A program made the translations under genes and the position numbers. Shown one piece after another: positions 3,785 to 58,505 of a stretch of 64,000 nt of DNA. The first letter of the stretch is position 1, and each line of letters begins with the position of its first letter. Under the pieces are notes generated by a model, which saw only the letters and a program-made list of their open reading frames with translations, made no database searches and was not told the origin of the DNA. Source of the stretch: a virus; IMG/VR virus record IMGVR_UViG_3300035182_000826, positions 64,001 to 128,000 of that record. The stretch is one strand, 5' to 3'.

Positions 3785-5104
3785 ATGATGATTGACCAAG
3801 AGTCACAGACGATGTTTATCAGTGCGATGCTTGGAAATCCTGGGCTGTTTGCGCGCGTTCAGCACTTGCTACAGCCTGTGTACTTTGACGCCAAGTACCA
3901 AGATGGTGTGAAGTTCCTAAAGACGTTCTTCGCAGAGAACCGAGGTGTACCGTCGCCTGAAATCTTCAAGACCGCAACGAAGATTCAACTACCTCAAATC
4001 ATCACAAATATTTCTCAAATTGACATGAACTTCCTAGCGTCTGAAATCGCTAAGTTCTGTCAGATCAGAGCTGTCACCCAAGCGGTACTGCAATCACCAA
4101 AGATGATTGAGAATGGTGATCTCGGTAAAATGCTCGAGATGATCAAGAACGCAGTTCAGATTCAACTGCACACTGATCTTGGTATCAACTATTTTGACGA
4201 CCCGGCCGCCCGCCTGACCGAAGAGGAGACAGAGCAAATCATCAAGACTGGTTGGGATGATCTTGATCGGGTTATTGGCGGCGTTCAGACTCAGGAATTG
4301 ATCCTGTTCCTAGCGAACTCTGGTGGTGGTAAGTCGGTTGGTATGACTAATTTGGCGTACAACTTGCTATCACAAGGCAAGAATGGTGTCTACATTTCAT
4401 TGGAAATGAAGGACAAGCTCGTTGCTCGCCGACTTGACTCGATGATCTCTCGAATCAGCGGCTTCATCATTCGCGATCACAAGATTGAGGTGTGTGAGCA
4501 GATTGAGAGAGCTAAGGCCGCTGGCTTCGGTGACTTTCACATTAAGCGCATGCGTGAAAGTACAACCACCTCAAATGAAATCTTGAGCTACTGCAATGAG
4601 GTTCAAGACAGAACTGGCAAGAAAATCGACTTCGTGGTCAGTGATTACCTTGATCTAATGGCAACAAATGGTAAGACCAATGACAATGGGAACATGTTCC
4701 TAAAGGACAAGATCGTTGCAGAGGAGTTGAGAGCTGTCGGTTTTGACCTTGACGCAATCATGATTAGCGCGTCTCAACTAGGCCGTGGGGCCCTTGTCGC
4801 AACTCGTGAAGAACGCAAGATCGAACAAGACCACATTCAGGGTGGCATCTCAAAGATCAACACCTCTGACCTTGCGATCGCAATGGTCAAAGACGAAGCA
4901 CTTGATGCTGCCAATGAGTACCGCTTTGACATTGTCAAATCACGTAACTCTGGTGGTGTCGGTAAGTCCGTCCATCTTGGATGGGACCCTATCAGCCTGC
5001 GAATCAGCAACATTCAACGAAAGCAGGCTGCGAAACTAGAGCTGAAGATCCCCGGTGTTAGAAAGCCCGGTGATTCAGACGATGGCCTTGGCTTGCTCGG
5101 GTGA
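3785..5104 (+). CDS. replicative DnaB-like helicase (T4 gp41-like)
   Basis: Walker A ANSGGGKS, YISLEM, Walker B VVSDYLDLM, SASQLGR, KSRN. Confidence 0.92.
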   Translation: MMIDQESQTMFISAMLGNPGLFARVQHLLQPVYFDAKYQDGVKFLKTFFAENRGVPSPEIFKTATKIQLPQIITNISQIDMNFLASEIAKFCQIRAVTQAVLQSPKMIENGDLGKMLEMIKNAVQIQLHTDLGINYFDDPAARLTEEETEQIIKTGWDDLDRVIGGVQTQELILFLANSGGGKSVGMTNLAYNLLSQGKNGVYISLEMKDKLVARRLDSMISRISGFIIRDHKIEVCEQIERAKAAGFGDFHIKRMRESTTTSNEILSYCNEVQDRTGKKIDFVVSDYLDLMATNGKTNDNGNMFLKDKIVAEELRAVGFDLDAIMISASQLGRGALVATREERKIEQDHIQGGISKINTSDLAIAMVKDEALDAANEYRFDIVKSRNSGGVGKSVHLGWDPISLRISNIQRKQAAKLELKIPGVRKPGDSDDGLGLLG

Positions 5105-5470: not shown

Positions 5471-5640
5471 CTTCTAATTTGACACCTTTTCTTAAGTGCA
5501 GCGCGTCTTAGGCGATAGAGCACACCCTCGGCGACACCGGTGAGGCCCGGCTCACGCCGGACAGTTCAGCCAATAAGTTATGCACGGCACTTAGCCGAGG
5601 CGAGCCGGTGTCGCCTCGTGTCGCCAAGGGTAACAGGCGC
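5471..5640. repeat. non-coding repeat locus 0: one nested-hairpin unit plus flanking module D
   Basis: CTAATTTGACAC..CTTAAGTGCA..GCGATAGAGCAC then CTCGGCGACACCGGTGAGG...CCAATAAGTTATGCA...GTCGCCTCGTGTCGCC; close homologs at 57.94-58.09 kb, 58.29-58.46 kb and (reverse complement) 28.40-28.55 kb. Confidence 0.92.
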
Positions 5641-5770
5641 GGCGGCCTCGCCTTTTAGAAACGGGCCATTAAGAACCTTTCGCGCATACCAAAATGAGTA
5701 ATGTGCGGTTCTTGCAATTGCATCTTCACCTTTTGGCTATGGTCCTTTGATGAAGTCTCTTGCATGCAAG
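5641..5770 (-). pseudogene. decayed fragment of the 26-aa repeat protein family
   Basis: Minus strand reads ARDFIKGP*PKGEDAIARTAHYSFWYARKVLNGPFLKGEAA (TAG at the W/F position). Confidence 0.75.
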
Positions 5771-6013: not shown

Positions 6014-6205
6014 TCACCGCGGATTGTGACCCCAGATCTTGAGTGACAGCGGCTTTCGGGTTGGCTCGCCGTTCTCGTCGTACAGCGCACCTGAGTTCCC
6101 CTTCATGCGTGACACAAAGGCACATTGCTTGCCAGCCCACTTCCACATCTCTGGCGTCCACTGCTCGACAGGAGTGCGCTTCATCTTGACGATCCACTCA
6201 GATCC
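6014..6205 (-). pseudogene. C-terminal fragment of a DUF3140-like protein
   Basis: WIVKMK..W...MWKWAGKQ.AFVSR...LSLKIWGHNP resembles the DUF3140 C-terminus (SL.NWGHDP); N-terminus replaced by repeat-gene sequence. Confidence 0.5.
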
Positions 6206-6223
6206 ATCACTTCTCCTTTGCAA

Positions 6224-6727
6224 TCAGTTTACCTTTAGGACATCTTTTGCATACAAACGGGCATAATCTGGGTCTTTCGCAATTGCGGCTTCGCCTTTAG
6301 GAAATGGCGCCTTTAGGACATCTCTCGCGTAGAAATACGCATAATATGAGTCTTTCGCAATTGCGGCTTCGCCTTTAGGAAATGGCGCCTTTAGGACATC
6401 TCTCGCGTACCAATACGCATACTTTGGGTCTTTCGCAATTGCGCCCTCGCCTTTAGGAAATGGCGCCTTTAGGACATCTCTCGCGTACGCAAATGCAAAC
6501 CCTGGGTCTTTCGCAATGGCGGCTTCGCCTTTAGGAAATGGCGCCTTTAGGACCTCTACCGCGTACGCATATGCATACTCTGGGTCTTTCGCAATTGCGT
6601 CCTCCCTCTTCTTCATCTCTTCTGGGTTGTTCTTGTACTTCTCCCAGATGAATTCAGGAACGGAATCATGAGCTGCATCATAATGCAGCAAGGTCTCAGG
6701 TTGTGAATGGTATTTGTACAGATACAT
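6224..6727 (-). CDS. 26-aa tandem-repeat protein, copy A (about 5 repeats)
   Basis: 78-nt repeats encoding AIAKDxxYAxxYAxxVLKAPFPKGEx; near-identical to 11996..12532. Confidence 0.85.
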   Translation of the reverse strand: MYLYKYHSQPETLLHYDAAHDSVPEFIWEKYKNNPEEMKKREDAIAKDPEYAYAYAVEVLKAPFPKGEAAIAKDPGFAFAYARDVLKAPFPKGEGAIAKDPKYAYWYARDVLKAPFPKGEAAIAKDSYYAYFYARDVLKAPFPKGEAAIAKDPDYARLYAKDVLKVN

Positions 6728-6751
6728 TTTAGTTTTCCAACTAGGTTCAGA

Positions 6752-6925
6752 TTAGAAGTCAGCAGCCTCGCCTTTAGGAAATGGCGCCTTTAGGACTTCT
6801 CTCGCGTACAAACGCGCATACCTTGTGTCTTTCGCAATTGCGTCCTCCCTCTTCTTCATCTTTTCTGGGTTCTTCTTGTACTTCTTCCAGATCAATTCAG
6901 GAATAGAGTCATGAGCTGCATTATG
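6752..6925 (-). pseudogene. truncated one-repeat copy of the 26-aa repeat gene
   Basis: HNAAHDSIPELIWKKY...AIAKDTRYARLYAREVLKAPFPKGEAADF; native start is lost. Confidence 0.75.
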
Positions 6926-7140
6926 TCCTTGATCAGGCGCACTCGATCGGTGGGATGTACCCATCACGAACGGCACCGCGCGAGAAGCGGCCGATCATGA
7001 CGTCGTTCTCGTAGATCTCGCCCTTGAGGGCTGGGCCAGCGCTTGTCCTTGCCCCTGTACGTCAGCTGTCGTTCAGGTCCAATGTCAGAAACGTTCAACA
7101 TTGTGGCAGCTTCACGCTATACTTGTGTGGCGCGACGCTG

Positions 7141-7506
7141 TCACTGGGTGTGTGGCTTACCTTCAGCCAGCCGCTTCTTGGCCTTCTCAGCCTTCAGCTT
7201 TGCCTTCACTGTTTCAAGCTTTTGCTTGTCTTCAGCTGATAGGTTCTTTCCGGCGCGGTTGATGTAAAAGTTCAAGCGCGACATTGCTTGTGCTTCAGAT
7301 TCACTGTTGCTACGAAGCGTCTTCGCGATCTCATCCGCTGACTTTGTGAAAAGCCCTTCTGGTGGTGTCCACTTCGTGTCAACATCAGCGCTCCATTGCT
7401 TTTCAGCGAGGATTTCTCTGGCGCGTTCAGTGATGTACTGCTTTGCTAGCTCAGAGGCGTTACCCTCATTGATGATTACGTTCACTACGTCTTTCAACAT
7501 GGTCAT
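7141..7506 (-). CDS. DUF3175-like small protein, putative head-packaged
   Basis: KQWSADV...EGLFTKSADEIA...AMSRLNFYINRAGKNLS resembles DUF3175; N-terminal IINE and ILAE motifs. Confidence 0.65.
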   Translation of the reverse strand: MTMLKDVVNVIINEGNASELAKQYITERAREILAEKQWSADVDTKWTPPEGLFTKSADEIAKTLRSNSESEAQAMSRLNFYINRAGKNLSAEDKQKLETVKAKLKAEKAKKRLAEGKPHTQ

Positions 7507-9341
7507 TCTCCTTGAGGGTTTTGAGTTGATTGAGGTGTCTGTGATGATTGGGTTGTCTGTGATGATTGGGGTGTTTGTGATGATTGGGGTGTTTGTGATG
7601 ATTGAGGTGTCTGTGATGATTGGGTTGTCTGTGATGATTGGGTTGTCTGCTTTGTGCCAGCTGTGATAATTGATGTCAGCGCCCGAATTTTCTGTAGGAT
7701 TACTCCAGGGCTGGTAAGTGTTTGCTTCTTAGCACGAAGCGCCGTGACCAACTGAGTCTTTTGGTAATTCAAATTCGCGTCTGGCACTCCAAGCACTGAC
7801 AACAATGATGAGATGGCTTGGAAGTATGTATCAGTTCCGAGCCGCACATCTTCAGTGACAGGCTCAATTGATGTTGACGCTGAAATGTTCAATCTGCTTG
7901 CAAGGCGTCTGAGCAGCATTTCCAACGAGGGGTCATCCTCAATTGACAATGCGACACGGCGAAGGAATGTGTTCACGACAGCTGGGCCACCTTGAACAAC
8001 GAGTTCCTCTGGCAAGCCAAGCTTAACAAGGATAGCTTCAAGCAAACGTTGAACAGCATCTCCGCGGCGATGATTAGCTGCTTCACTCAACTCAAACCCT
8101 GCCTCTTTTCCAAGTGCCTTGTACAAATTGATGAACGCTGTCTTCGCTGCCGCGTGCTGGCGAAGGTATTCAGCACCAGCAGTAACAGAATCGGCTGCAG
8201 CAGCAGTGTTGTAGAAGCGTCCAGGAATTCCAACTAATTGGAAGAACGCAGCAATTTGCTTTGCCATAGGCAACTTCAGACGAGAAACAAAGGCACGACC
8301 CTGAGCGTCAAGCTTCATTGACAGCCCGTCGCGAACGCCATCACTCAAGTCATTCGCTTCTCTGATCAATGATTCCTCAAGTTGCGGTTTTACTTCAAAA
8401 GTTGACTTAGCACCAATTACGTTCTTTTGCTTTGTGAGCTCAGCTGCCATGCGCTCAGCTTCTTCAAGTGATGGGTACTTCACAATTTTTCCTTCACGGG
8501 TGTACAGATACTCTTTCAGGCCATTTACGCCGCCAGAGCTCTTGATTTTTAGAACCCATTTCTTTGCGTTCAGCGCAGAGGCCATATGGGCTTTCACATC
8601 ATCCGATAGAGATTCCTTAACTTTAGCAGGCTTTTTTTCATCTGTTGAAGCTTCTTCCTCTCCTTCCTTCTTTTCCTTCTTCTTTTTCTTCTTGTCGTTT
8701 TCGTCTACTTCATCCTCATCTGATTCTTCATCAGTTTCGTCATCAGCTGTGTTAGGATTTGTTTTGTCGTCGTCATTAGGCGTCAACAACTTGTTTTCAA
8801 TAGGTTCCTCTGGGTTTAGTTCAGCGAGATCAGCACCAGAATCAAATGACGCGGCTGGTGAATCCTTGTCGATAAACGAATCAAGTTCAGGAGTGTCAAT
8901 GTTATCTTCATCACCGCTTTGCGCGACGCTCTGATCACCTTGCTCAGTTGGCCAAACCACATCAACAATGTCGAACTGTGTTGCCATCTGATTGATTGCG
9001 CTTTCGATGTCATTGTCCATGCCAAGCATGTTCGACAATGCCTTCTCAAACTCATCAGCTTCTTGCGCGTTCACATAGATTTCGATGTAGTCACCATTGT
9101 CAGTCTTGACAACGAAACCAACAGAATCAACTTGGTCATTCAGCTCAGCCGCACGCTCAAGATAGTTGTTCACATCAGAACCTGTGACGCTACCATCAGT
9201 GCCATGGTTGATCATGTTCCGCATCAATGAGAATCTAACATCAGACTTATTGGAAGCGGTGTCAGTTGAGCCAGCATCAGTTCCATCAGACATCTTGAGT
9301 TTGGTTTGAATGTGGTTTTCTAGTTCAGAAAGTAATTTCAT
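7503..9341 (-). CDS. acidic hypothetical protein, putative internal head protein
   Basis: 612 aa; starts MKLLSELE; several (L/I/V)xE sites; C-terminal QT(T/P)QSS repeats. Confidence 0.75.
   Translation of the reverse strand: MKLLSELENHIQTKLKMSDGTDAGSTDTASNKSDVRFSLMRNMINHGTDGSVTGSDVNNYLERAAELNDQVDSVGFVVKTDNGDYIEIYVNAQEADEFEKALSNMLGMDNDIESAINQMATQFDIVDVVWPTEQGDQSVAQSGDEDNIDTPELDSFIDKDSPAASFDSGADLAELNPEEPIENKLLTPNDDDKTNPNTADDETDEESDEDEVDENDKKKKKKEKKEGEEEASTDEKKPAKVKESLSDDVKAHMASALNAKKWVLKIKSSGGVNGLKEYLYTREGKIVKYPSLEEAERMAAELTKQKNVIGAKSTFEVKPQLEESLIREANDLSDGVRDGLSMKLDAQGRAFVSRLKLPMAKQIAAFFQLVGIPGRFYNTAAAADSVTAGAEYLRQHAAAKTAFINLYKALGKEAGFELSEAANHRRGDAVQRLLEAILVKLGLPEELVVQGGPAVVNTFLRRVALSIEDDPSLEMLLRRLASRLNISASTSIEPVTEDVRLGTDTYFQAISSLLSVLGVPDANLNYQKTQLVTALRAKKQTLTSPGVILQKIRALTSIITAGTKQTTQSSQTTQSSQTPQSSQTPQSSQTPQSSQTTQSSQTPQSTQNPQGE
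7520..7650 (-). repeat. 18-bp coding tandem repeat, QT(T/P)QSS about 6-7 copies
   Basis: GTGATGATTG(G/A)G... units visible on the + strand. Confidence 0.9.
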
Positions 9342-11605
9342 TTTTTATCCTTGCGTGGATCTGGGTACTTGAGCAACATACGGTGAATGTTTGGGTTTCT
9401 CTTCCGTTTGATGATCTTGGAATTACCAAGGCGCTGTGGAAAAGTTGCGATGTTCGCGCTGGTGGTCATTGACGATGTGTTCATAGGCGCAGCATTTGAG
9501 GTGCTTGGGTCAACACCTGCGAAAGGCGCATCATCTTCCTCAGCGAGCTTTACCACATCACGCAAAAGACCTTCTTTGAGTGCCATTTGATTTTCTCCTG
9601 CGGTTGAGGCATTTAGCAACACGTTCTGCTGAATCACCTTAAACCGTCTGAATAGCTGACTGTTCCCGGCGTACTGCAGACCTAGCATGAACACCAAGTT
9701 CATTGCAGTGACTTTGTCTTCGAATGAAAGCTCAGCCCAATGTGGAACAAGACTGATCAACATATTTAGCTTTTGGTTTCCAATCCCAGACAGTCTCCAG
9801 AATCGATCTAGCATGAACTGATGATTCTTCCAATTAATGGAAACTTGCTTATCCCATGATAGCTCCAAGTGCATACGTCTCCAGAGAATGTCATTCACCT
9901 GAGAAGTCGCTCTCTTGATGATTCTCTTGGCATCCATCGACAATCCAATCTTTGGATCATTGAAATGCCAGATTGCGTAACCCCAGTGGTTCAACTCACT
10001 CATACCAACATCCCACTTCTTAAGATTTGAGAGATTATGGTTCCGCAGCTTTCTCATGCCAATGATGTCATGCTCTTGAATAATGATCATCGAAATGAAT
10101 ACGATTGTGAGGTACGTGCTGATCATCTGAACGCCGTCTTTGCCAGCGAAATCAGCGATTGCGATGTCATTTCTGAGAGTGTTCTTCTTGTGCGTTTTCT
10201 TCTTTGCTTCAGTAAGGCTTTCAAGTGCAAGCGCGTATCCACCAAAGATGACTGCAGCCAATTGAGCTGTGGTGGCCGTTTTTGAAATCTGGTCCCTTAA
10301 CCGTTGAACGCTCTTCTTTGCCTCAGCAAAGATTGTGAGTGTTCTTGCTATCACGTCCTTGCTCAGTGAGACCTCTGTGCCGTCAGAAAGCTTCTTCTTC
10401 AGTGTGCTGGATTTGCTCTTGAACTCAGCCAAGAGGTTTTCAATGTCAAGTCTAGCACGCTCTACGATTGCTAACGCATGCTTCTTTGTGGCTATGATGT
10501 CATTAGCAGTTCTTGACGCATCGGCGAACTGCTGAATAGTTCTGGCTGGAGTGTCACCTTTGAATTGTTCAAGGGCCTTCTTGGCATTGGCTGGCTTCGC
10601 CAGCTCACGGTTTCCAAACAGCTCAGCAAGCTTGATTCGCATTTCACCAATGATGCCACCGCGATCAATAAGATCAGCGTTCTCATCCGTGGTGGTCAGC
10701 CCTCCCTGAACCATGTTCCGATAGTACTGATTGAACTTGTTCATCTCAAGGAAGACACCCTTGTCCACAACCTTGATCTGCTCTCCATTTTCATCGCGTA
10801 GAACATACCCCTCAATAGGGCCTTTGCTGATCGAGTTTGGTTTTTTGGCGTTCAGTGCCTTTAGGAGTTCATCCTTGATTGGCAGTTTGTACTCTTCAAG
10901 AATCTGTCCAATCAATGCTTCTCTGAATTCCTTGAAGGCGTTCCGGCTCTCCTTAGGAATTTTGTTCAGTGATATGGTGAGCGTTTCACCATTTGTCATG
11001 CCCTGCTCATTTTGTGAATTCAGGAACTTTTGGAATTTGGACAGCAAGGTGTCATTGACCTTGATCTTACTTGCGTCAAGTTCAGCTGGTTCAATGAACT
11101 TGACGTCAAGATCCTTATCAACCACCTGAACTTCCTCTCCATCTGAGCTCTCAATTGCTTGAATTGACACGCTTACCTGGCGACCAGTCAACTTTGTCTT
11201 GAGCCTGTCAAAGTTCTCAGCGCTACCTTCAACTGGGCGCAGGAGGGCGACGTAGGACACCGGTTCCACTGAGTATGAAACACTATTAGGCTGTTCACCG
11301 TACAACACCTCGGCCTCACCGGTGTCGCCAGGGGATAGTGTCTCCAACACAATGTCCTTCACTTTTTCAAGAGCGGCATGGGCGGCCCTGAATTGATTGA
11401 AGTCACTAACTGGTGCCCAATCATCTGGACTGTACATCTTCTTGGCGCCATTTCTCTTGCCTTCACGTGACGTGAAGAATTGCCCTTCTTGATCAACGCC
11501 AAACCAGAGTTGAGCGCCATCAAGCTTCTCCTGAATCTGCATCGAGGAGATTTTCTTCACAAGGCTGATGAACTGTTCTGGCTTTAGGTCTTCAATGTGA
11601 ATCAT
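9338..11605 (-). CDS. ligase-fold nucleotidyltransferase-domain protein (DUF6267-like) with long C-terminal region
   Basis: IHIEDL, EKLDG (motif I KxDG), EVLY, IEGYVL, KVVDK; reverse TAAATA at 11626. Confidence 0.6.
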   Translation of the reverse strand: MIHIEDLKPEQFISLVKKISSMQIQEKLDGAQLWFGVDQEGQFFTSREGKRNGAKKMYSPDDWAPVSDFNQFRAAHAALEKVKDIVLETLSPGDTGEAEVLYGEQPNSVSYSVEPVSYVALLRPVEGSAENFDRLKTKLTGRQVSVSIQAIESSDGEEVQVVDKDLDVKFIEPAELDASKIKVNDTLLSKFQKFLNSQNEQGMTNGETLTISLNKIPKESRNAFKEFREALIGQILEEYKLPIKDELLKALNAKKPNSISKGPIEGYVLRDENGEQIKVVDKGVFLEMNKFNQYYRNMVQGGLTTTDENADLIDRGGIIGEMRIKLAELFGNRELAKPANAKKALEQFKGDTPARTIQQFADASRTANDIIATKKHALAIVERARLDIENLLAEFKSKSSTLKKKLSDGTEVSLSKDVIARTLTIFAEAKKSVQRLRDQISKTATTAQLAAVIFGGYALALESLTEAKKKTHKKNTLRNDIAIADFAGKDGVQMISTYLTIVFISMIIIQEHDIIGMRKLRNHNLSNLKKWDVGMSELNHWGYAIWHFNDPKIGLSMDAKRIIKRATSQVNDILWRRMHLELSWDKQVSINWKNHQFMLDRFWRLSGIGNQKLNMLISLVPHWAELSFEDKVTAMNLVFMLGLQYAGNSQLFRRFKVIQQNVLLNASTAGENQMALKEGLLRDVVKLAEEDDAPFAGVDPSTSNAAPMNTSSMTTSANIATFPQRLGNSKIIKRKRNPNIHRMLLKYPDPRKDKK

Positions 11606-11686: not shown

Positions 11687-11996
11687 ATGAACCTGTACTT
11701 CTTACACAGCAATCTAGCATCATTGCTTCATCATGAGGCCGCCCATGAGTCAATTCCTGAGCTCTTTTGGTATGACTACATTTTTGATATTCATGATTTG
11801 GACTGGTTAAAGAAGCGTGAAGGCGCCCTGCTAAGGATCCAAAGTTTGCATACCTATACGCAAGTATTGCGCTCAAAGCACCATTCCCAAAAGGCGAAGC
11901 TGCGATTGCAAAGACCACAACTTATTCAAAAGAGTATGCAAAAAAAGGTTCTTCATGCCGTACCATGATGGTAAACTGATTACGAAGGCGAAGTGA
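11687..11996 (+). pseudogene. frameshifted divergent copy of the 26-aa repeat gene
   Basis: MNLYFLHSNL..LLHHEAAHESIPELFW; shifted frame gives AKDPKFAYLYASIALKAPFPKGEAAIAK; ends DGKLITKAK. Confidence 0.75.
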
Positions 11997-12532
11997 TGTA
12001 TCTGTACAAATACCATTCACAACCTGAGACCTTGCTGCATTATGATGCAGCTCATGATTCCGTTCCTGAATTCATCTGGGAGAAGTACAAGAAGAACCCA
12101 GAAAAGATGAAGATGAAGAAGAGGGAGGACGCAATTGCGAAACACCCAGGGTATGCATTTGTGTACGCGAGAGATGTCCTAAAGGCGCCATTTCCTAAAG
12201 GCGAGGACACAATTGCGAAAGACACAAGGTATGCATTTGCGTACGCGAGAGATGTCCTAAAGGCGCCATTTCCTAAAGGCGAGGGCGCCATTGCGAAAGA
12301 CACAAGGTATGCGTATTTGTATGCGAAAGAGGTCCTAATGGCGCCATTTCCTAAAGGCGAGGGCGCCATTGCGAAAGACCCAGAGTATGCGTATTTGTAC
12401 GCGAGAGATGTCCTAAAGGCGCCATTTCCTAAAGGCGAGGGCGCCATTGCGAAAGACTCATATTATGCGTATTTGTATGCGAAAGATGTCCTAAAGGCAC
12501 CATTTCCTAAAGGCGAGGCTGCTGACTTCTAA
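11996..12532 (+). CDS. 26-aa tandem-repeat protein, copy B (5 repeats)
   Basis: CCTAAAGGCGAG recurs every 78 nt (12194, 12272, ...). Confidence 0.88.
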   Translation: MYLYKYHSQPETLLHYDAAHDSVPEFIWEKYKKNPEKMKMKKREDAIAKHPGYAFVYARDVLKAPFPKGEDTIAKDTRYAFAYARDVLKAPFPKGEGAIAKDTRYAYLYAKEVLMAPFPKGEGAIAKDPEYAYLYARDVLKAPFPKGEGAIAKDSYYAYLYAKDVLKAPFPKGEAADF

Positions 12533-12556
12533 TCTGAACCTAGTTGGAAAACTAAA

Positions 12557-13261
12557 ATGAATCTGTACAAGTACTATTCACAACCTAACACCTTGCTGCA
12601 TTATGATGCAGCTCATGACTCCGTTCCTGAATTGATCTGGAAGAAGTACGAGAACAACCCAGAAAAGATGAAGAAGAGGGAGGACGCAATTGCGAAACAC
12701 CCAGGGTATGCATTTGCGTACGCGAGAGATGTCCTAATGGCGCCATTTCCTAAAGGCGAGGACACAATTGCGAAAGACACAAGGTATGCGTATTTGTATG
12801 CGAAAGAGGTCCTAAAGGCGCCATTTCCTAAAGGCGAAGCCGCAATTGCGAAAGACCCAGAGTATGCGCGTTTGTACGCGAGAGAAGTCCTAAAGGCGCC
12901 ATTTCCTAAAGGCGAGGACGCAATTGCGAAAGATCCAGGGCCTGCATTTGGGTACGCGAGAGATGTCCTAAAGGCACCATTTCCTAAAGGCGAGGCTGCA
13001 ATTGCGAAAGATCCAGAGTATGCGTATTGGTACGCGGTAGATGTCCTAATGGCGCCATTTCCTAAAGGCGAAGCCGCAATTGCGAAAGACCCCATGAAAT
13101 CATATTTGTACGCCAGATTCGTGATTAGGGGCCGTTGGCCTAAAGGTGAAGCCGCGATTGCAAAGAGCCAAACGCAATCACAACTCTACGCAACCTACGT
13201 GCTCCACGGTGACTTTATCCTGAATGGGAAAACAATTTACAAAATGAACAAGGAATCATGA
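12557..13261 (+). CDS. 26-aa tandem-repeat protein, copy C (about 7 repeats, last two divergent)
   Basis: Same repeat with a distinct C-terminal cap. Confidence 0.88.
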   Translation: MNLYKYYSQPNTLLHYDAAHDSVPELIWKKYENNPEKMKKREDAIAKHPGYAFAYARDVLMAPFPKGEDTIAKDTRYAYLYAKEVLKAPFPKGEAAIAKDPEYARLYAREVLKAPFPKGEDAIAKDPGPAFGYARDVLKAPFPKGEAAIAKDPEYAYWYAVDVLMAPFPKGEAAIAKDPMKSYLYARFVIRGRWPKGEAAIAKSQTQSQLYATYVLHGDFILNGKTIYKMNKES

Positions 13262-13614
13262 TGTTCAAAACACTACGCATGCTAACTGAAGCCTTTTCAG
13301 CATTGGAGGCAATTCCAAATAGTTACCTTGATGAATTCAAGGTCAAGGAGCCATCATACGGCCCCGCGCTGATGGCAAAACATGAAGGGTCAGCTTCGCA
13401 TAAGGACACAATCATTGTTGTTGGCATCATTGAAGACCCTGAAGATGAGGATCTACCATTAGCAGTGATGATGAAATCTGATTGGGATGGCATCATCCAT
13501 GAGAAGTTCTTCAATGACACTAAGGATGGTTACAAAGCTGCGTTGGATTATGCGAACATTCTGCGCACGGCCAATCTGACACGTGGTGGCAAGCCAAAAG
13601 GTTGGAAAGACTAA
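13258..13614 (+). CDS. hypothetical protein, putative head-packaged
   Basis: ATGA overlap with the upstream gene; N-terminal MFKTLRMLTEA. Confidence 0.7.
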   Translation: MMFKTLRMLTEAFSALEAIPNSYLDEFKVKEPSYGPALMAKHEGSASHKDTIIVVGIIEDPEDEDLPLAVMMKSDWDGIIHEKFFNDTKDGYKAALDYANILRTANLTRGGKPKGWKD

Positions 13615-13617
13615 AAA

Positions 13618-13755
13618 AAGAATCTGTACAAGAAGAGGGAGAACGCAATTGCGAGGACGCAAAGTATGCGTATTAGTACGCGAGAGATGTCCTAGGGGCG
13701 AAGCCGCCATTGCATGATGGTAAACTGATTGCAAAAGGCTGCTGACTTCTAATCC
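13618..13755 (+). pseudogene. collapsed remnant of the repeat gene
   Basis: Short exact pieces of the start, one repeat and both alternative gene ends joined in order. Confidence 0.8.
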
Positions 13756-13799: not shown

Positions 13800-14471
13800 A
13801 TGCACTTCGACTACCAATCATTCGACACTGAAACTCATTACGGGCTTCGGTTCTACAAGACTCCTGTTGGGCTGTTGCCGTCAATCACGACGGTGTTAGG
13901 GCTGTCTGCTTCAGAAGAGAAGAAGCAGTCCCTACAACAGTGGCGGGATTCGATTGGTCATGCTGAAGCTGATGCCATTTCCAAGCATGCCACTGATCAT
14001 GGCACTGCAGTTCACTTGCTTGCTGAGAGATTCCTAAAGGGTGAGGCAGTTGATCAGGGTGATGTGGGCCAAGAAGATTTAGCTGCCTTCAATTCCATTA
14101 GGCTGCTGCTAAAGAACATCAATCCCTGGTGCCAAGAGCAGTCGATCTACTCTCCATCTCTCGAAATTGCTGGGCGATTCGATTGCATTGGGGAGTTCAA
14201 TGAAAAGCCAAGCATCATTGACTTCAAAACCTCTAGAAAACTGAAGGATTGGGGGCATGTTCATGACTACAAACTTCAGCTAGCGTTCTACGCATTTGCC
14301 CACAACGAGCTCTTCAAAACCAATATCAGGCAGGGCGTGATCATCATGGCCTCTGGTGATGGTTTTCCTCAAAAGTTCATAATTCCAGATGTGTACGTCT
14401 TTCTGGATGAGCTCTGTGACAGAACTGAACGTTTTTGGCAGGTTCTTGCTAAACAAGTTCAAACGTCTTAA
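13800..14471 (+). CDS. PD-(D/E)XK exonuclease (T4-like phage Cas4/RecB-type)
   Basis: PSITTVL, GTAVH, AGRFD, IIDFKTS, LQLAFYA. Confidence 0.85.
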   Translation: MHFDYQSFDTETHYGLRFYKTPVGLLPSITTVLGLSASEEKKQSLQQWRDSIGHAEADAISKHATDHGTAVHLLAERFLKGEAVDQGDVGQEDLAAFNSIRLLLKNINPWCQEQSIYSPSLEIAGRFDCIGEFNEKPSIIDFKTSRKLKDWGHVHDYKLQLAFYAFAHNELFKTNIRQGVIIMASGDGFPQKFIIPDVYVFLDELCDRTERFWQVLAKQVQTS

Positions 14472-16457: not shown

Positions 16458-16701
16458 ATCTTTTCGCTCGTGATTTAGATGTTGACTTCCTCAAGGCTGC
16501 CTTTTCAGCCTCTGCCTTCTCATTAATCAGTTCAACCACAATGTCACGCTCAACTGCGGATATGCGCATTGCGGTTTCATAAGACACAGCGCTTTCACTG
16601 CGCATCGCAATCTGGAATGCTACCTTTACCAGATTGCGGCTTTCGATATTCAGCTGATCGATCATCTTTATGATCTTGTCACGATCACCCGACAAGATCA
16701 C
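16456..16701 (-). CDS. putative baseplate hub assembly protein (gp51-like position)
   Basis: Coupled downstream of the gp26-like gene; SYETAMRIS..ER motif. Confidence 0.5.
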   Translation of the reverse strand: MILSGDRDKIIKMIDQLNIESRNLVKVAFQIAMRSESAVSYETAMRISAVERDIVVELINEKAEAEKAALRKSTSKSRAKR

Positions 16702-17483
16702 TCTGTGAAAAAACTCACTGGGTTCAGTGGTAGCTCAACCATCATATCCTCACCGCAGTCCTTGCACTTCAATGTCACGTTTGGTGAAGGGCCCCAATCA
16801 TTGAGTACCTTAGATGACTCAATGATCCGGTTTATTTGTGGTGATGTCAAGCGGCGAACCCACTCCTCAATAAATTTCTGATCTGAAACACCATCAACAT
16901 TGTCAATCATTGACAGGATGTTTACGACGGCAATCTGCTTCAGATCATCTTCATTGAGTGAGTCTTTCTTCATACCGCTCAGGGTGAAGATCTTCACCAA
17001 GTCCACATACTTCAGTGGGCGGGTCACAACTGCCTGATCGCCAATCTGGACCTTGTTCATGACCGTGATCATGGTTGGATCAAGCCGCTTCATGTTCATG
17101 ACTTGGTTTTCAACGTTCACCACGTAAGAGTGGCTCTTAGCCTCTTTGCAGGTGTGCTTCACATCCACCTGAAAGTTAGGTCCATATGTTGAGATGCGTA
17201 AGAAGAACAGAATCGCATCAACGTCTCTAGCGAACAGTTCAAGAGGCTTCTTGATTGATGGGACACATTCTGCAAGTACCTTCTCAAGTGCCTGCCCGTT
17301 AAACAATAAATCAGGGTTCTTTAGGTTGATTTCATCCATCGCTGACATTGGATGAACTTGAATTTCGCCATTCTGAACTGACTCGTCAAACACTCCATCT
17401 TGATAAAGCGCGCCTGCCGAAGGTAGTTGAAAAACACGGCCTGGTAGCTTAAGCTTTGCAAGAAGTGGGTTCATTTCAGACAT
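16698..17483 (-). CDS. baseplate hub subunit (T4 gp26-like)
   Basis: LPSAG.LY, PMSAMDE, DVDAILFFLRISTYG, C-terminal CxxC and FF. Confidence 0.8.
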   Translation of the reverse strand: MSEMNPLLAKLKLPGRVFQLPSAGALYQDGVFDESVQNGEIQVHPMSAMDEINLKNPDLLFNGQALEKVLAECVPSIKKPLELFARDVDAILFFLRISTYGPNFQVDVKHTCKEAKSHSYVVNVENQVMNMKRLDPTMITVMNKVQIGDQAVVTRPLKYVDLVKIFTLSGMKKDSLNEDDLKQIAVVNILSMIDNVDGVSDQKFIEEWVRRLTSPQINRIIESSKVLNDWGPSPNVTLKCKDCGEDMMVELPLNPVSFFTE

Positions 17484-28364: not shown

Positions 28365-29690
28365 TGCGCATTAGCCGCGCGGGTTCAACGCGGGCCGGCG
28401 ACACGAGGCGACGCCGGCTCACCTCGACTAAGTGCTGTGCATAACTTATTGCCCGCACTGTCCGGTGTGAGCCGGACCTCACCGGTGTCGCCGAGGTGGT
28501 GCTCTATCGCTTAAGGCGAGCTGCACTTAAGCAAAGGTGTCAAATTAGGTGGTGTTCTTTGTGGTAAGGTGTTCTTTGTTTGTGTGCAGTGTGCGCAGAG
28601 CGCATTAGCCGACGAATAGCGGGTTCAATGGATTCTTCAATGGATTCTTCAATGGATTCTTCATTGGAGAGAGGTGATCAGTTCTTCATTGGAGTCAGTC
28701 ATAGTCGCTCTCACAGCGCGTGCTCATAGAGCGCATTAGCCGACGAATAGCGGGTTCAACGGGTTCGTAGGTGACCAGTTCTTCAGGTTCTTCATTGGAG
28801 TGAGGGTGGTGCTCTTAGTGGTGAGGCGTACACAGAGCGCATTAGCCGACGAATAGCGGGTTCAATGGGTTCAATGGGTTCAATGGGTTCAATGGATTCA
28901 ATGGATTCAATGGATTCAATGGATTCAATGGATTCAATGGATTCAATGGATTCAATGGATTCAATGGATTCAATGGATTCAATGGATTCAATGGATTCAA
29001 TGGATTCAATGGATTCTTCATTGGAGTAGGTGGTCAGTTCTTCAGGTTCTTCATTGGAGTAGGTGGTGTTCTTTGTGTTTGTGTGTGGTGCTCATAGAGC
29101 GCATTAGCCGACGAATAGCGGGTTCAATATCATCCGGCGACACGAGGCGACGCCGGCTCACACCGGACAGTACAGCCAATAAGTTATGCATAGCACATAG
29201 CCGGTGTGAGCCGGACCTCACCGGTGTCGCCGAGGCTGTGCTCTATCGCTTATGGCGAACTGCACTTAAGAAATGTGTCAAATTAGGTGGTGTGCTCACA
29301 GTGCGCGCTCATAGAGCGCATTAGCCGACGAATAGCGGGTTCAATGGATTCTTCATTGGAGTAGATGATCAGTTCTTCATTGGAGTGGGGGTCAGTTTTT
29401 GTGGTGAGGCGTTCACAGAGCGCATTAGCCGACAGATAGCGGGTTCAATGGATTCTTCAACAAGTTCTTCATTGGAGTGGGTGGTCAGTTGCTCACAGTG
29501 CAGTGTGCGCAGAGCGCATTAGCCGACGAATAGCGGGTTCAATGGATTCTTCACGCAGTGTGTACACAGAGCGCATTAGCCGAGCACCACCTCGGCGACA
29601 CGAGGCGACGCCGGCTCACCCCGTATTAGCGACTCAATAAGTTATGCACCACATAGGCCCGGCAATTGCCGGGCCACCACCGGCAAAACC
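28365..29690. repeat. composite non-coding repeat locus 1
   Basis: 32-mer AGAGCGCATTAGCCGACGAATAGCGGGTTCAA at 28597, 28728, 28834, 29096, 29313, 29417 (variant), 29511 plus partials; TTCTTCATTGGAG modules; hairpin units at 28395-28496, 29134-29235 and partial at 29590. Confidence 0.95.
28861..29013 (+). repeat. 9-bp tandem repeat x17
   Basis: 3x TTCAATGGG then 14x TTCAATGGA, growing out of the 3' end of a 32-mer. Confidence 0.95.
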
Positions 29691-38196: not shown

Positions 38197-39374
38197 AACT
38201 AGTAAAGCTACAAGAACTGGCGATCAAGCCTGCAAAAATCGATCGTGCGATTGTGTCATCATCAAATGTTGATGCATTAGTTGGTTTTGAGGTTGAACTT
38301 TACGTGCCTTCAGATTCAGCGTTCTATGACGAGCCACCGTCAGAACAAGAGCTCAAAAAGATCAGCTCACCAGAAGAGCTTGAATCTGTTTTAGAGGACT
38401 CTCAAGCTACTGAAAAGAAGTTGAAGACATTGAGCAGACACTACTCGAACTGGGTAGGTGAGCGCATTGAAGAATGGGTTGATGAGAACTGGCGAGACTT
38501 TGATGATGGAGATCAGGAAGAAGCTAGAGCTGACGCTGAACATCACATCCCAGAGAGTGAATACAGCTTTCAGGCATGGATCAAGCAAGAGTTTAATTCA
38601 CTCGGTGAGATGCTTGACCACTATGGATTAGTGTTCAAGGTCAGCGGCACGGGACAAGAGGTACTTGATAACATCAGAGATGAAATCTCACGCTTTCTCA
38701 AAGTAAAGTTCGTGATGCATGGTGACGCTAGTGGAAGTACATGGGCCATTACCAATGACGATTCAGTGAAGGACGATGAGGGTAATGAGACTGATAGTGG
38801 TGAGCATGGCTTCAATGTTGAAATCATCTCACCTCCGCTCAGCCCCGTGGATGCGCTGAGTTATCTGCAAAAGGTGTTCAGATTTGCGAACACGTATCGC
38901 CTTCGTGCCAATCAGTCAACAGGTTTGCACATCAACATTTCATTTCCTAAGGAAATGATGTCTAAACTAGACGTTGTGAAGCTTGCACTGTTCTCTGGGG
39001 ATGACTATCAGTTAAGACGATTTGGGCGTGAGCTCAGCAGGTACGCCTGGTCACAGAAAAAGTACTTGGAAAAAGAGTTCAGTGAAGCTGATCTTAGCAC
39101 ATTGGCATCATCTGCGTCTATGCAGGCTGCAGCCAAAAAGATCATGGACCGAACTGGAAAATACTTCAGCTTCAATTTGAATAAGCTGCAGTATGGATAC
39201 CTGGAATTTAGAACCGCTGGTGGTGTTGATTACATCAACCGGTTCAGTGACATCAGAGACACGGTTGGCAGATACCTACACGCAATGAAAATTTCAATGG
39301 ACCCTGCAGCCGCTCGCAAAGAGTACCTGAAGAAACTTGGTGCACTGGTGCTGAAGGCAAAATCTGAAAAGTGA
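38193..39374 (+). CDS. amidoligase-family (COOH-NH2 ligase) protein
   Basis: GFEVE, DDSV, EIISPPL, NQSTGLHINIS, KY.SFN, YLEFR. Confidence 0.8.
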   Translation: MKLVKLQELAIKPAKIDRAIVSSSNVDALVGFEVELYVPSDSAFYDEPPSEQELKKISSPEELESVLEDSQATEKKLKTLSRHYSNWVGERIEEWVDENWRDFDDGDQEEARADAEHHIPESEYSFQAWIKQEFNSLGEMLDHYGLVFKVSGTGQEVLDNIRDEISRFLKVKFVMHGDASGSTWAITNDDSVKDDEGNETDSGEHGFNVEIISPPLSPVDALSYLQKVFRFANTYRLRANQSTGLHINISFPKEMMSKLDVVKLALFSGDDYQLRRFGRELSRYAWSQKKYLEKEFSEADLSTLASSASMQAAAKKIMDRTGKYFSFNLNKLQYGYLEFRTAGGVDYINRFSDIRDTVGRYLHAMKISMDPAAARKEYLKKLGALVLKAKSEK

Positions 39375-57523: not shown

Positions 57524-58470
57524 GCCTCGGCGACACCGGTGAGGCCCGGCTCACACAGGCTCGCCAAGACATATATCTTTATTGGCCACTATTTTTAAGC
57601 GCACCGGCGTCGCCTCGTGTCGCCGGCTCACGTTGAACCCGCTATTCGTCGGCTAATGCGCTCTGTGTGCGCCTCACCACTATGAACACCACCTCACTCC
57701 AATGAGAACCTGAAGAACTGGTCACCTCGCTCCAATGAAGAACTTGTTGGAGAATCCGTTGAACCCGCTATCTGTCGGCTAATGCGCTCTATGGGCGCTC
57801 ACGCCTCACTTAAACTTTTTGCTAATGATAATGTCAGCTCTTGAAGGTCCTTGACCGTGTCATAGAACCCATTGAACCCGCTATTCGTCGGCTAATGCGC
57901 TCTATGAGCGCACTGTGCACCTCACACAAAGAGCCCCTTCTAATTTGGCGCCTTTCTTAAGTGCAGTTCGCCATAAGCGATAGAGCACCACCTCGGCGAC
58001 ACCGGTGAGGTCCGGCTCACACCGGACCTCACCACCAATAAGTTATGCACAGCACTTGGCCGGTGTGAGCCGGCGTCGCCTCGTGTCGCCGGCTCACGTT
58101 GAACCCGCTATTCGTCGGCTAATGCGCTCTGTGTACGCACACTGTGAGCGACTATGACCAATGAAAACTGATCACCTGCTCCAATGAAGAACTTGTTGGA
58201 GAACTTGTTGGAGAACTTGTTGGAGAGCCCATTGAACCTGCTATTCGTCGGCTAATGCGCTCTGTGTGCGCCTCACCACTAAGAACACTCTTCTAATTTG
58301 ACACTTTCTTAAGTGCGGCACAAATGGCAGTTCGCCATAAGCAATGAGCACAGCCTCGGCGACACCGGTGAGGTCCGGTGTGAGCCGGACCTCACCGCCA
58401 ATAAGTTATGCACAGCACTTGGCCGGTGTGAGCCGGCGTCGCCTCGTGTCGCCGAGGGTGACAGGCGTCA
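57524..58470. repeat. composite non-coding repeat locus 2 (inverted relative to locus 1)
   Basis: Reverse-complement 32-mers at 57633, 57759, 57872, 58099, 58232; hairpin units at about 57525-57626, 57991-58092, 58334-58456; GAGAACTTGTTG about x3. Confidence 0.95.
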
Positions 58471-58505
58471 ATAGAAGATAAATAGCCAATCATTATGGAG
58501 TTCAT

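Follow-up and report, generated by a model that had tools for sequence, protein, structure and literature searches.

A candidate repertoire of 26-residue repeat proteins with a variable helix face and one predicted constant partner in a metagenomic phage

What role may be served by a viral locus in which one short protein repeat is present many times in nearly identical DNA, except at a few codons that differ from copy to copy? The question is raised by a contig of a large uncultured jumbo phage (IMG/VR record IMGVR_UViG_3300035182_000826), of which positions 64,001 to 128,000 were analyzed as a single stretch of 64,000 nucleotides, hereafter the window. An initial annotation, made from the letters of the window only, described 26-residue repeat proteins and proposed a helical solenoid whose binding face is diversified by recombination between repeats. 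The repeat arrays and their pattern of variation are confirmed here, and three elements are added, namely that the proteins belong to a large and widespread family, that the same positions are variable family-wide, and that a partner domain is fused or adjacent to the repeats in other phages. We favor, with slightly better than even confidence, the explanation that these genes constitute a repertoire of interchangeable recognition subunits sharing one constant partner, with binding faces likely aimed at variable host proteins.

Table 1. Repeat genes, arrays and relics in the window (positions are those of the window).
Feature	Position	Strand	Content	Basis
Relic, two decayed units	5578-5736	-		
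Gene A	6224-6727	-	leader and 5 units, the final one truncated; 167 aa	ORF, codon table
Second 78-nt array	6232-6599	opposite to first array		Tandem Repeats Finder
Broken copy A2	6752-6976	-	leader missing ~16 residues at its start; a single TR-RL-RE unit	
Frameshifted single-unit copy	11687-11980	+	leader and unit 'AKDPKFAYLYASIALKAPFPKGEAAIAK' in successive frames	direct sequence reading, ORF list
Gene B	11996-12532	+	44/46-aa leader, then five 26-aa repeat units; 178 aa	ORF, translation, codon table
78-nt array	12125-13092		12.3 copies	Tandem Repeats Finder
Gene C	12557-13261	+	leader, 5 canonical and 2 divergent units, C-cap; 234 aa	ORF, codon table, AlphaFold2
Relic of short copy	13612-13745	+	frameshifts and stops; leader-like KNLYKKRENAIA.., ..YAY*YARDVL.., cap-like ..DGKLIAKG	

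The genes, arrays and relics of the window are listed in Table 1. The 17 units of 78 nt that had been ascribed to three intact genes are all present (five in A, five in B and seven in C), but the interval 11996-13261 to which they had been assigned covers only B and C, whereas gene A, needed to reach this number, lies outside. An 18th unit is held by the broken copy A2, and the relic of two decayed units is possibly the severed 3' end of gene A. Genes A and B are 91% identical across 502 nt and their leaders show no silent difference (pS 0), while the last two units of gene C are of the VIRGRWPKGE type and precede a beta-hairpin cap. A promoter/terminator scan reported 12 promoter-like sites compared to 9.2 expected, those within the leaders being coding sequence.

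Among the 16 canonical units, ten codons (1-3, 15, 16, and 19-23) are each represented by one codon and are invariant even silently, in agreement with the earlier statement that the scaffold is nearly identical in DNA. Codons 6 and 10 exhibit six alleles apiece, every one an amino-acid replacement, and codon 9 encodes Y, F or R. Differences among the variable codons fall on each of the three codon positions and involve all base types (e.g., GAG, GGG, AAG, TAT, GAT, AGG), several of these codons being two to three bases apart. At codons 5, 6, 9, 10, 13, and 14, 19 replacement steps were counted for a single silent one, compared to 8 and 8 elsewhere (Fisher p = 0.005). The variable codons of the first helix, helix A, reach a dN of 0.44 for a dS of 0.10-0.18, as opposed to a dN/dS of 0.11 over the remaining 18 codons, a contrast inflated by the choice of sites that vary and by recombination, which breaks the assumptions of simple counting. 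Between genes A and B, the variable helix-A codons similarly show pN 0.29 and pS 0, and the other codons pN 0.03 and pS 0.15. On the dN/dS comparison proposed as a check by the initial annotation, replacements outrun silent changes at the variable codons.

All the alleles listed earlier were recovered, i.e., PE, PG, PK, PD, TR, and SY for the first variable pair, YA, FA, FV, FG, YW, YL, YF, and RL for the second, and RD, RE, KD, KE, VE, and VD for the third. The combinations of TR with FA, YL, and RL, cited as examples of reshuffling, are also present, although the last lies in the broken copy A2. The four-gamete test was failed by 129 of 231 informative site pairs, with at least eight recombination events per 78 nt, and this mosaicism of alleles is that expected from the exchange between units that had been suggested; as the contig was assembled from short metagenomic reads (CheckV completeness 45%), some mosaics could be assembly chimeras.

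This last point, the assembly of near-identical 78-nt units from a metagenome, could be extended to the claim that no diversity is selected at all and that unstable tandem repeats, surface drift and chimeric assembly produce the pattern. Turnover is indeed evident from the broken copies and relics, and every repeat family shows some variation at its surface. We nevertheless consider this very improbable in view of the excess of replacements over silent changes at the helix-A codons beside a strongly constrained scaffold, of the variable codons separated by two or three bases next to ten codons devoid of silent change, and of the five repeat-protein ORFs that remain intact. Moreover, an independent array of 59 units in an unrelated phage (L004) shows the same pattern, with an overall pN of 0.20 exceeding a pS of 0.14.

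The position of the variable residues was examined on an AlphaFold2 model of gene C (pLDDT 96.3), which is an alpha-solenoid with two helices per 26-residue unit, as the initial annotation had anticipated. Helix A corresponds to unit positions 5-16 (DSSP of the model), and the variable positions 5/6, 9/10, 13/14, and 17 are predicted to share one stripe of it, with a spacing of i, i+1, i+4, i+5, i+8, and i+9 within the helix, the conserved Y7, A8, Y11, A12, V15, and L16 lying on the opposite side in the model. The earlier expectation that the variable residues line one face is supported by this predicted model. No solved relative of the repeat protein was retrieved by single-sequence or profile search, and Foldseek returned no PDB match at E ≤ 1e-3 for the repeat model, the best BFVD match (E 1.7e-3) being a generic helical repeat. 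In a wide search with VIA-align, the best match was a designed repeat (Z 7.0), followed by weak resemblances to PUF (5.4), the symplekin HEAT domain (5.2), the PP2A A subunit (5.1), and PPR (3.7). None of these rows stands out, as any helical repeat would be expected to give Z values of this order (≤ 7).

A regulatory identity was tried and rejected. The Pfam family HTH_35 (PF13693, Ner/SfsB) reaches 42.7 bits over the whole protein for a cut-off of 25, but no single stretch passes, the best ones being confined to positions 26-49 or 35-49 of the 75-position profile; the signal is a motif artefact due to summed matches to WPKGE..IA. The NCBIfam SfsB model gives 32.7 bits for a cut-off of 150, and a helix-turn-helix fold disagrees with the continuous two-helix-per-unit solenoid of the AlphaFold2 model.

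Judged by sequence, A, B, and C are paralogs in a large, unnamed and mostly phage-borne family. Relatives of comparable length number 429, and a profile search at E ≤ 1e-3 identified 6,379 clusters in metagenomes. Derived from 1,188 distinct units in 237 proteins, the family unit reads I-A-K-D-P-x-Y-A-Y-x-Y-A-x-x-V-L/I-K-G-R/P-F/W-P-x-G-E-x-A, in which A12 is 95% conserved and Y11 and E24 are fixed by the search pattern; all 16 canonical units of this phage match it. Positions 6, 10, 13, and 14 are among the most variable in the same set. Relatives carry up to about 27 repeat genes, compared to five here. No Pfam model covers the family, and no paper was found by literature searches with motif strings and topics. 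Many members currently carry the label "lambda repressor-like regulator." Searches of 50,697 phage records by blastn with the region and by tblastn with gene C and paralog D (a diverged copy elsewhere on the contig) found no match in cultured phages, to which the low-complexity filter and the withholding of near relatives from the search may contribute. In cellular genomes, no relative was recovered with peptide patterns of paralog D, and the degenerate pattern YA..VIKGRWP matched only 8 MAG contigs, while the exact 29-nt scaffold had no match in viral_contigs and metagenome_contigs.

The family-wide data bear directly on the possibility that the proteins read nucleic acids in a modular manner like TALE, PUF or PPR repeats, with one base contacted per unit through the variable helix-A residues. 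The i, i+1, i+4 spacing recalls the recognition triplets of PUF, position 9 is occupied by Y, F or R, all able to stack on bases, PUF and PPR figure among the weak fold matches, and with a pI of about 9 and a net charge of +5 to +7, the repeat proteins carry a mildly basic charge that by itself does not exclude nucleic-acid binding. However, positions 6 and 10 reach 3.97 and 4.03 bits of entropy, accepting nearly any residue rather than a few code classes, and most family proteins contain only 2-7 units (1-7 in the copies of this phage). A TALE-like code of one base per repeat is unlikely because of this entropy of about 4 bits at the key positions and these low unit numbers. In addition, the fold matches are those usual for helical repeats, no profile of a nucleic-acid-binding repeat family is matched, the HTH_35 hit is an artefact, and the domains to which relatives fuse the repeats (ADP-ribosyltransferase, a PrkA kinase domain, GYF, ankyrin repeats, and AAA ATPases) are protein-modifying or protein-binding. 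We thus hold nucleic-acid reading to be highly unlikely in general, and the repeat proteins probably bind proteins. The fusion partners also hint at a protein target within the cell.

A further domain, here named GTKWCTA, precedes the repeats in more than 110 of about 340 retrieved relatives and forms with them the commonest long architecture. In this phage it is encoded by a separate single-copy gene at positions 9518-10285 of the contig, outside the window and 28-67 kb away from the repeat genes, whereas in three other phage records a standalone GTKWCTA gene immediately precedes the repeat genes or adjoins them. In the PHROG library, genes B and C weakly match phrog_28193 over the leader and first unit, and the GTKWCTA domain matches both phrog_28193 and phrog_17056 with E down to 3.7e-27. 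These two families, whose function is unassigned, are the only ones in the library that truly cover these proteins; they model the domain and repeats as one fused protein, whereas in this phage the two are split and the repeats occur in many stand-alone genes.

Complex prediction for the GTKWCTA protein and gene C yielded an ipSAE of 0.80, compared to 0.01 for the best of three controls, a mark that was attained by 58 of the 80 solved complexes and by 2 of the 110 mismatched pairs (rough counts, as own alignments were used). Three runs share at least 67% of contacts, with a partner pLDDT of at least 91, and the predicted interface connects partner residues 204-251 with the gene C leader at residues 1-26 and 43-47. 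The leader is thus predicted to dock onto the C-terminal helices of the GTKWCTA protein, which would leave the variable face free. The score expresses the confidence of a model, and the pair corresponds in effect to two parts that other phages join in one fused protein; since neither chain has a solved relative, the score cannot be put down to a complex already known to the predictor. For the GTKWCTA domain, sequence search and Foldseek returned no solved relative or fold match, and VIA-align gave no clear match (best Z 5.5, with weak GNAT-like rows). A PcfJ-like label for the domain was not reproduced, as hmmscan of four domains against Pfam at E ≤ 10 gave no PcfJ row, and a literature search on PcfJ-like domains yielded nothing useful. 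The domain harbors invariant Asp, Trp, and Cys residues (D101, W167, and C168), and this core may be an enzyme.

Conversely, the leader could do no more than cap the solenoid at its N-terminus, with the predicted docking a relic of fused ancestry and the repeat proteins acting alone as inhibitors or decoys of host factors. The second half of the leader does read like a degenerate unit (..IWEKYKNNPEEMKKRE compared to ..VLKAPFPKGE), the partner gene is distant in this phage, and subfamilies L006-L009 possess another N-terminus. This is nonetheless rather improbable, considering a complex prediction far above its controls with the interface placed on the leader, the leader residues M1, Y4, and P10 that are invariant among 32 sequences, and the single-copy partner gene that adjoins the arrays in the three other phages.

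The genomic setting of the copies raises yet another possibility, that of virion-surface or assembly parts whose variable face binds host surface structures or different fiber proteins, with the GTKWCTA protein likewise sitting on the particle. Phage receptor-binding parts are often under diversifying selection. Two diverged paralogs, D and E, are found in structural operons in other parts of the 161-kb contig; E is inserted between genes for a virion structural protein and a baseplate wedge protein, its ends forming stop/start codon overlaps. Furthermore, the N-terminal 243 residues of EST35_0205 (QCG76086.1) of Pseudomonas phage PA5oct are 36.5% identical to the GTKWCTA protein (E 8e-37), and this product, which alone among the relatives has been observed experimentally, is annotated as "structural protein, ESI-MS/MS" and was detected in virion preparations, among 93 gene products tied to virion particles (PMC7318152). 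The 26-aa repeat is absent from its C-terminal half, which forms another helical domain, and tblastn found no match to the repeat proteins in PA5oct. On the other hand, the same mass-spectrometry list includes enzymes unrelated to the virion (PMC7318152), genes A, B, and C sit amid replication and nucleotide-metabolism genes, as do the arrays of relatives L003 and L005, no fiber, Ig-like or carbohydrate-binding domain is present, and the ADP-ribosyltransferase, kinase, AAA, and GYF fusions are of cytoplasmic type. We therefore judge a role as virion parts to be unlikely. The detection of the PA5oct homolog in virions and the setting of paralog E have also been counted as hints of an intracellular protein target.

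Each protein comprises a constant leader of ~44 aa, 1-7 helix-loop-helix units and, in some copies, a C-terminal cap, and purifying selection holds the framework that is predicted to be buried (Y7, A8, Y11, A12, V15, L16, the PFPKGE loop, and helix B). Under the favored explanation of recognition subunits sharing a constant partner, unequal crossing-over and gene conversion among the 78-nt units would keep the framework DNA nearly identical and create hybrid units, and selection would maintain the helix-A stripe (5/6, 9/10, 13/14, 17) unlike between units. The common leader is predicted to plug into the single GTKWCTA protein, so that a constant partner, which may be enzymatic or belong to the virion, would be served by swappable subunits, each offering its own binding face to targets that would most likely be variable host proteins. 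The repeat proteins may also be packaged into the virion. More tentatively, as a possibility that we find doubtful, the whole may be an adaptor system with SCF/F-box-like logic, in which a constant GTKWCTA core is re-aimed by a library of solenoids in an arms race with the host, and which is maybe virion-borne and early-acting.

If true, this would represent a third phage route to binding diversity, beside diversity-generating retroelements (DGRs) and the swapping of receptor-binding domains, in which diversity is hard-wired as paralogs on a rigid 26-residue scaffold, renewed by recombination between units, and channeled via one constant partner. It would also bring to attention an unnamed and mislabeled family of thousands of clusters, for which no Pfam model, structure, or paper was found. 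The very short and regular solenoid with its defined variable stripe, a natural analog of designed repeat binders, could become an engineering scaffold, and the targets, once found, could reveal host factors or defense systems that jumbo phages must neutralize.

Several known systems invite comparison. The parallel drawn earlier with TALE, PPR, and VLR stands as an analogy but not as family membership, given the 26-residue unit, the variation on a helix rather than a loop, and the lack of profile match. TALE effectors of Xanthomonas and Ralstonia similarly consist of tandem two-helix units with DNA nearly identical save for a few hypervariable codons, reshuffled by recombination, but their units of 33-35 aa read DNA bases with two variable residues, 12 and 13, placed in the loop between the helices, whereas here 6-7 residues vary along a helix face with near-maximal entropy in proteins of few units; as unit length and place of variation differ and no sequence relation exists, membership was rejected. 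PUF/Pumilio proteins typically have eight three-helix units of about 36 aa arranged in an RNA-binding arc, compared to 1-7 two-helix units of 26 aa here, and no Pfam match to them was obtained. Fold comparisons with solved PUF domains (3q0q, Z 5.4, rmsd 6.2, 229 aligned; 4dzs, Z 4.6) gave values in the background range of helical repeats. Searching A, B, and C with hmmscan against Pfam and NCBIfam gave no HEAT, ARM, TPR, ankyrin or Sel1 family at E ≤ 1. An origin as DGR targets was also rejected, as no RVT_1 match was found on the 161-kb contig (about 45% of the genome) and variation spans all base types without adenine specificity.

The internal proteins IPI-IPIII and Alt of phage T4 are small, polymorphic and non-essential, and some counter host defense once injected; one relative of the present family (P0236) has repeats fused to an Alt-like ADP-ribosyltransferase domain. 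The T4 proteins are devoid of repeats and carry a capsid-targeting sequence cleaved at L/I-x-E, whereas the leader described here, which reads IWE in A and B and IWK in C with no conserved site seen, is predicted to dock on a partner. In the host-range families of poxviruses with ankyrin repeats and PRANC (F-box-like) modules, variable repeats choose the target and a constant module docks on one partner. The likeness lies in a viral multigene family that combines a variable repeat domain with a short constant docking module, predicted as such in our case; poxviruses use ankyrin repeats of 33 aa, a C-terminal docking module and the SCF ubiquitin ligase of the host, whereas in this phage the docking module is N-terminal and the predicted partner is encoded by the phage.

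The linear IMG/VR virus record that contains the window (as its bases 64001-128000) measures 161,452 bp and was estimated by CheckV to be 45% complete, and hence represents a fragment of a jumbo phage; the best cultured relatives of its DnaB-like helicase are jumbo phages (35-38% identity). Tandem Repeats Finder detected arrays of 78 nt at 12125-13092 and 6232-6599, and the 26-aa repeat units (78 nt each) belong to three intact genes, accompanied by several damaged copies and two diverged paralogs embedded in structural operons, with stop and start codons nearly abutting or overlapping. Coding strand and reading frame are unambiguous: the forward-frame ORFs exhibit a conserved leader (the constant N-terminal ~44 aa) and cap (the C-terminal beta hairpin), thousands of relatives and silent variation at third positions, whereas the long antisense ORFs are a by-product of the repeat.

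Repeat genes, damaged copies and other genes of the record (positions in the window, unless marked as contig, i.e., the whole record)
Feature	Position	Strand	Remark
Gene A	6224-6727	-	5 units, intact
Gene B	11996-12532	+	5 units, intact
Gene C	12557-13261	+	7 units, intact
Broken copy	6752-6976	-	damaged
Frameshifted copy	11687-11980		damaged
Relic	5578-5736	-	two decayed repeat units
Relic	about 13612-13745		damaged copy
Diverged paralog	contig 38292-38906	+	intact, outside the window
Diverged paralog	contig 58317-58697	-	intact, outside the window
Stand-alone GTKWCTA gene	contig 9518-10285 (L021:1019-1786)		255 aa, sole such domain on the contig
DnaB-like helicase	3785-5104		near the repeat genes
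PD-(D/E)XK exonuclease	13800-14471		near the repeat genes
Baseplate hub gene	16698-17483		near the repeat genes

The broken copy and gene A (6224-6976, minus strand) form an inverted duplication with genes B and C (11996-13261, plus strand), with 87-91% identity over 500-620 nt, flanking three minus-strand genes (7141-11605). As the leaders of genes A and B present zero silent differences, a recent duplication or gene conversion is suggested, and the 5-kb segment could invert. Gene A ends within its fifth unit (..YAKDVLKVN-stop) and is directly followed by a 69-aa ORF (6014-6223, minus strand) with a weak match to DUF6321 under the cut-off; this arrangement, with the two decayed units lying beyond the ORF, looks like an insertion that severed the 3' end of gene A. 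A strong terminator-like hairpin is located at 5450-5423 (minus strand). A 612-aa protein (7503-9341, minus strand), which has no match in Pfam or PHROG, is acidic and of low complexity over a long central stretch and carries at its C-terminus a TQSSQ repeat corresponding to an 18-nt tandem repeat (6.8 copies, 7527-7649). The only similarity of its 755-aa neighbour (9338-11605) is a weak RNA-ligase-like one at the N-terminus. A non-coding region further contains a 9-nt tandem repeat (TTCAATGGA, 17 copies) and a 94-nt repeat (28861-29016 and 29371-29553).

The initial annotation described an invariant scaffold carrying variable positions, and the codon table of the 16 canonical units bears this out: a single codon is used at each of codons 1-3, 15, 16 and 19-23, and codons 6 and 10 have six alleles each, replacements throughout, several of them 2-3 bases apart. 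As to dN/dS, proposed there as a per-position check, Nei-Gojobori counts give about 4 over codons 5, 6, 9, 10, 13, 14, 17 and 25 (dN 0.44, dS 0.10, for a whole-unit dS of 0.18) compared to 0.11 at the remaining 18 codons (dN 0.02, dS 0.21), a contrast to be read knowing that the variable sites were chosen for being variable and that recombination violates the assumptions of the model. Counted as minimal steps, 19 replacements for 1 silent change occur at the six helix-face codons vs. 8 for 8 elsewhere (Fisher p = 0.005). Between genes A and B, pN and pS amount to 0.29 and 0 at the exposed codons, but to 0.03 and 0.15 at the rest of the repeat codons. Recombination between repeats, also claimed initially, is supported by mosaic alleles: the four-gamete test is violated by 129 of the 231 informative site pairs, so that a minimum of eight recombination events within 78 nt is needed, with the reservation that short-read assembly of near-identical repeats may yield such chimeras. 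Silent variants stay linked to the adjacent replacement alleles (GCA at codon 8 with F9, TAT at codon 11 with K13), indicating that real haplotype blocks were re-joined.

The helical solenoid anticipated from the sequence was recovered by AlphaFold2 (32 sequences, mean pLDDT 96.3, pTM 0.88), which predicts short helices in the leader, then seven repeats and a C-terminal beta hairpin. In each modeled repeat, helix A spans positions 5-16, followed by a loop (17-20) and by helix B, from position 21 to position 1 of the following unit. Given their spacing (i, i+1, i+4, i+5, i+8, i+9), the variable positions 5/6, 9/10 and 13/14 fall on one side of helix A, and, on the basis of this periodicity and of the DSSP string, positions 6, 10, 13, 14 and 17 are predicted to form a classical exposed stripe, in agreement with the single variable face proposed earlier. 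The opposite side of the modeled helix A would be filled by the conserved Y7, A8, Y11, A12, V15 and L16. Fold searches with this model retrieved only generic helical repeats (designed repeats, HEAT, PUF, Sel1), all with Z <= 7, and no sequence-related solved structure was found.

These proteins belong to a large unnamed family, only partly covered by PHROGs and systematically mis-annotated as regulators. A word-indexed search returned 429 relatives of similar length, none meaningfully named, and a profile search of 1.84 billion representatives returned 6,379 clusters with a threshold of E <= 1e-3, and 1,278 with E <= 1e-30. No covering model of the repeat exists in Pfam or NCBIfam, no match to the repeat proteins was obtained among cultured phage records, and a literature search found no paper on the family. 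The Pfam model HTH_35 exceeds its whole-protein cut-off through summed partial matches; we rejected an HTH_35/SfsB identity, as these are matches of the short motif WPKGE..IA of which no single stretch passes, and the same summed matches explain the JGI label "lambda repressor-like (predicted transcriptional) regulator" carried by many relatives. Among 1,188 distinct units (Y11 and E24 being fixed by the search pattern), A12 is conserved at 95% and variability peaks at positions 10, 6, 7, 13 and 14 (4.03, 3.97, 3.69, 3.47 and 3.32 bits), which largely coincides with the set variable in this phage.

Back-to-back repeat genes are found in other uncultured phages, with at least 18 genes on one contig (L004/L023), six on another (L005) with a seventh copy nearby on the opposite strand, and many on a third (L007-L009). 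An excess of replacements recurs independently in the young L004 array (59 units), where the overall pN of 0.20 exceeds the pS of 0.14, and positions 6, 10, 13 and 14 reach pN 0.46; in older arrays, silent sites are saturated. The closest relative found (L003:6001-6678, 63% identity) contains three consecutive units identical in protein, which shows that unequal crossing-over duplicated units very recently in that phage. In a set of 185,579 species genomes, the motif occurs on few MAG contigs only; multi-unit members lie on four contigs (L013, L015, L016, L017) of one Promethearchaeota (Asgard-archaeon) MAG and on one contig (L014) of a Cloacimonadota MAG, and may represent viral contigs binned with these MAGs or viruses of those hosts.

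Some of the longer relatives carry the repeats as fusions with an ADP-ribosyltransferase (P0236), a PrkA kinase domain (P0129), NinX, GYF, ankyrin repeats or AAA ATPases. By far the dominant long form, seen in over 110 of the roughly 340 proteins fetched, consists of an N-terminal ~240-aa domain with the motif GTKWCTA followed by repeats, and corresponds to phrog_28193 and phrog_17056, neither with an assigned function. The same domain is linked to the repeats by gene neighbourhood: a stand-alone GTKWCTA gene, present once on our contig, is single-copy and beside repeat genes in three other phage records, ending at 352 before an array starting at 359 (L023), directly upstream of the array (L005) or directly downstream of the repeat genes (L011), and the two records devoid of it are 18-21% complete. 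Its model (pLDDT 90) has no clear fold match (best Z 5.5, weak GNAT-like rows), and a PcfJ-like identity found no backing in Pfam (four GTKWCTA domains, E <= 10); D101, W167 and C168, invariant in 40 sequences, hint at a putative active site.

Complex prediction with the GTKWCTA protein (40-row alignment) and gene C (32-row alignment), effectively two halves of a protein fused elsewhere, gave ipSAE values of 0.80, 0.77 and 0.80 over three runs, compared to 0.01 for the best control out of three. Of the solved complexes, 58 of 80 attain the mark applied, as do 2 of 110 mismatched pairs, counts that are approximate here, own alignments being used. The runs share at least 67% of contacts, with a partner pLDDT of at least 91, and, as neither chain has a solved relative, the result is not accounted for by a complex already known to the predictor; these values nevertheless express the confidence of a model rather than a measured interaction. 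The leader is predicted to mediate docking, partner residues 204-251 (C-terminal helices) contacting the shared leader (residues 1-26 and 43-47 of gene C), in which M1, Y4 and P10 are invariant (32 sequences), and the variable face is left free in the model.

The complex may be packaged into the virion and injected, in the way of T4 Alt or the internal proteins. Indeed, the closest cultured relative of the GTKWCTA protein, PA5oct EST35_0205 (36.5% identity, with a differing C-terminal domain), is annotated "structural protein, ESI-MS/MS", and the two diverged paralogs are placed in late structural operons; however, no conserved protease site was found in the leader. According to the PA5oct paper, 93 gene products were tied to virion particles by ESI-MS/MS, 7 of them enzymes unrelated to the virion (PMC7318152). 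We hold, with somewhat better than even confidence, that a repertoire of interchangeable binders with a constant partner is the best explanation. The scaffold would be homogenised by unequal crossing-over and gene conversion among the 78-nt units, which would also alter unit number and give rise to hybrid units, and selection would maintain the differences along the exposed stripe. Each paralog would serve one constant partner as an exchangeable recognition subunit, and variable proteins, probably those of the host, would be the targets.

The protein-type domains fused to the repeats and an entropy close to the maximum at key positions favour protein targets over a nucleotide code. The TALE/PPR/VLR-type modular recognition put forward in the initial annotation holds as an analogy only, and a nucleic-acid code is unlikely. 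The system operates in the manner of other families of diversified repeat binders. Although the defining features of TALE, of poxvirus ankyrin/PRANC families and of designed repeat binders are each absent here, the repeat genes resemble TALE in their DNA-level pattern, designed repeat binders in their architecture, and poxvirus ankyrin/PRANC families in their logic, which associates a variable repeat with a constant docking module.
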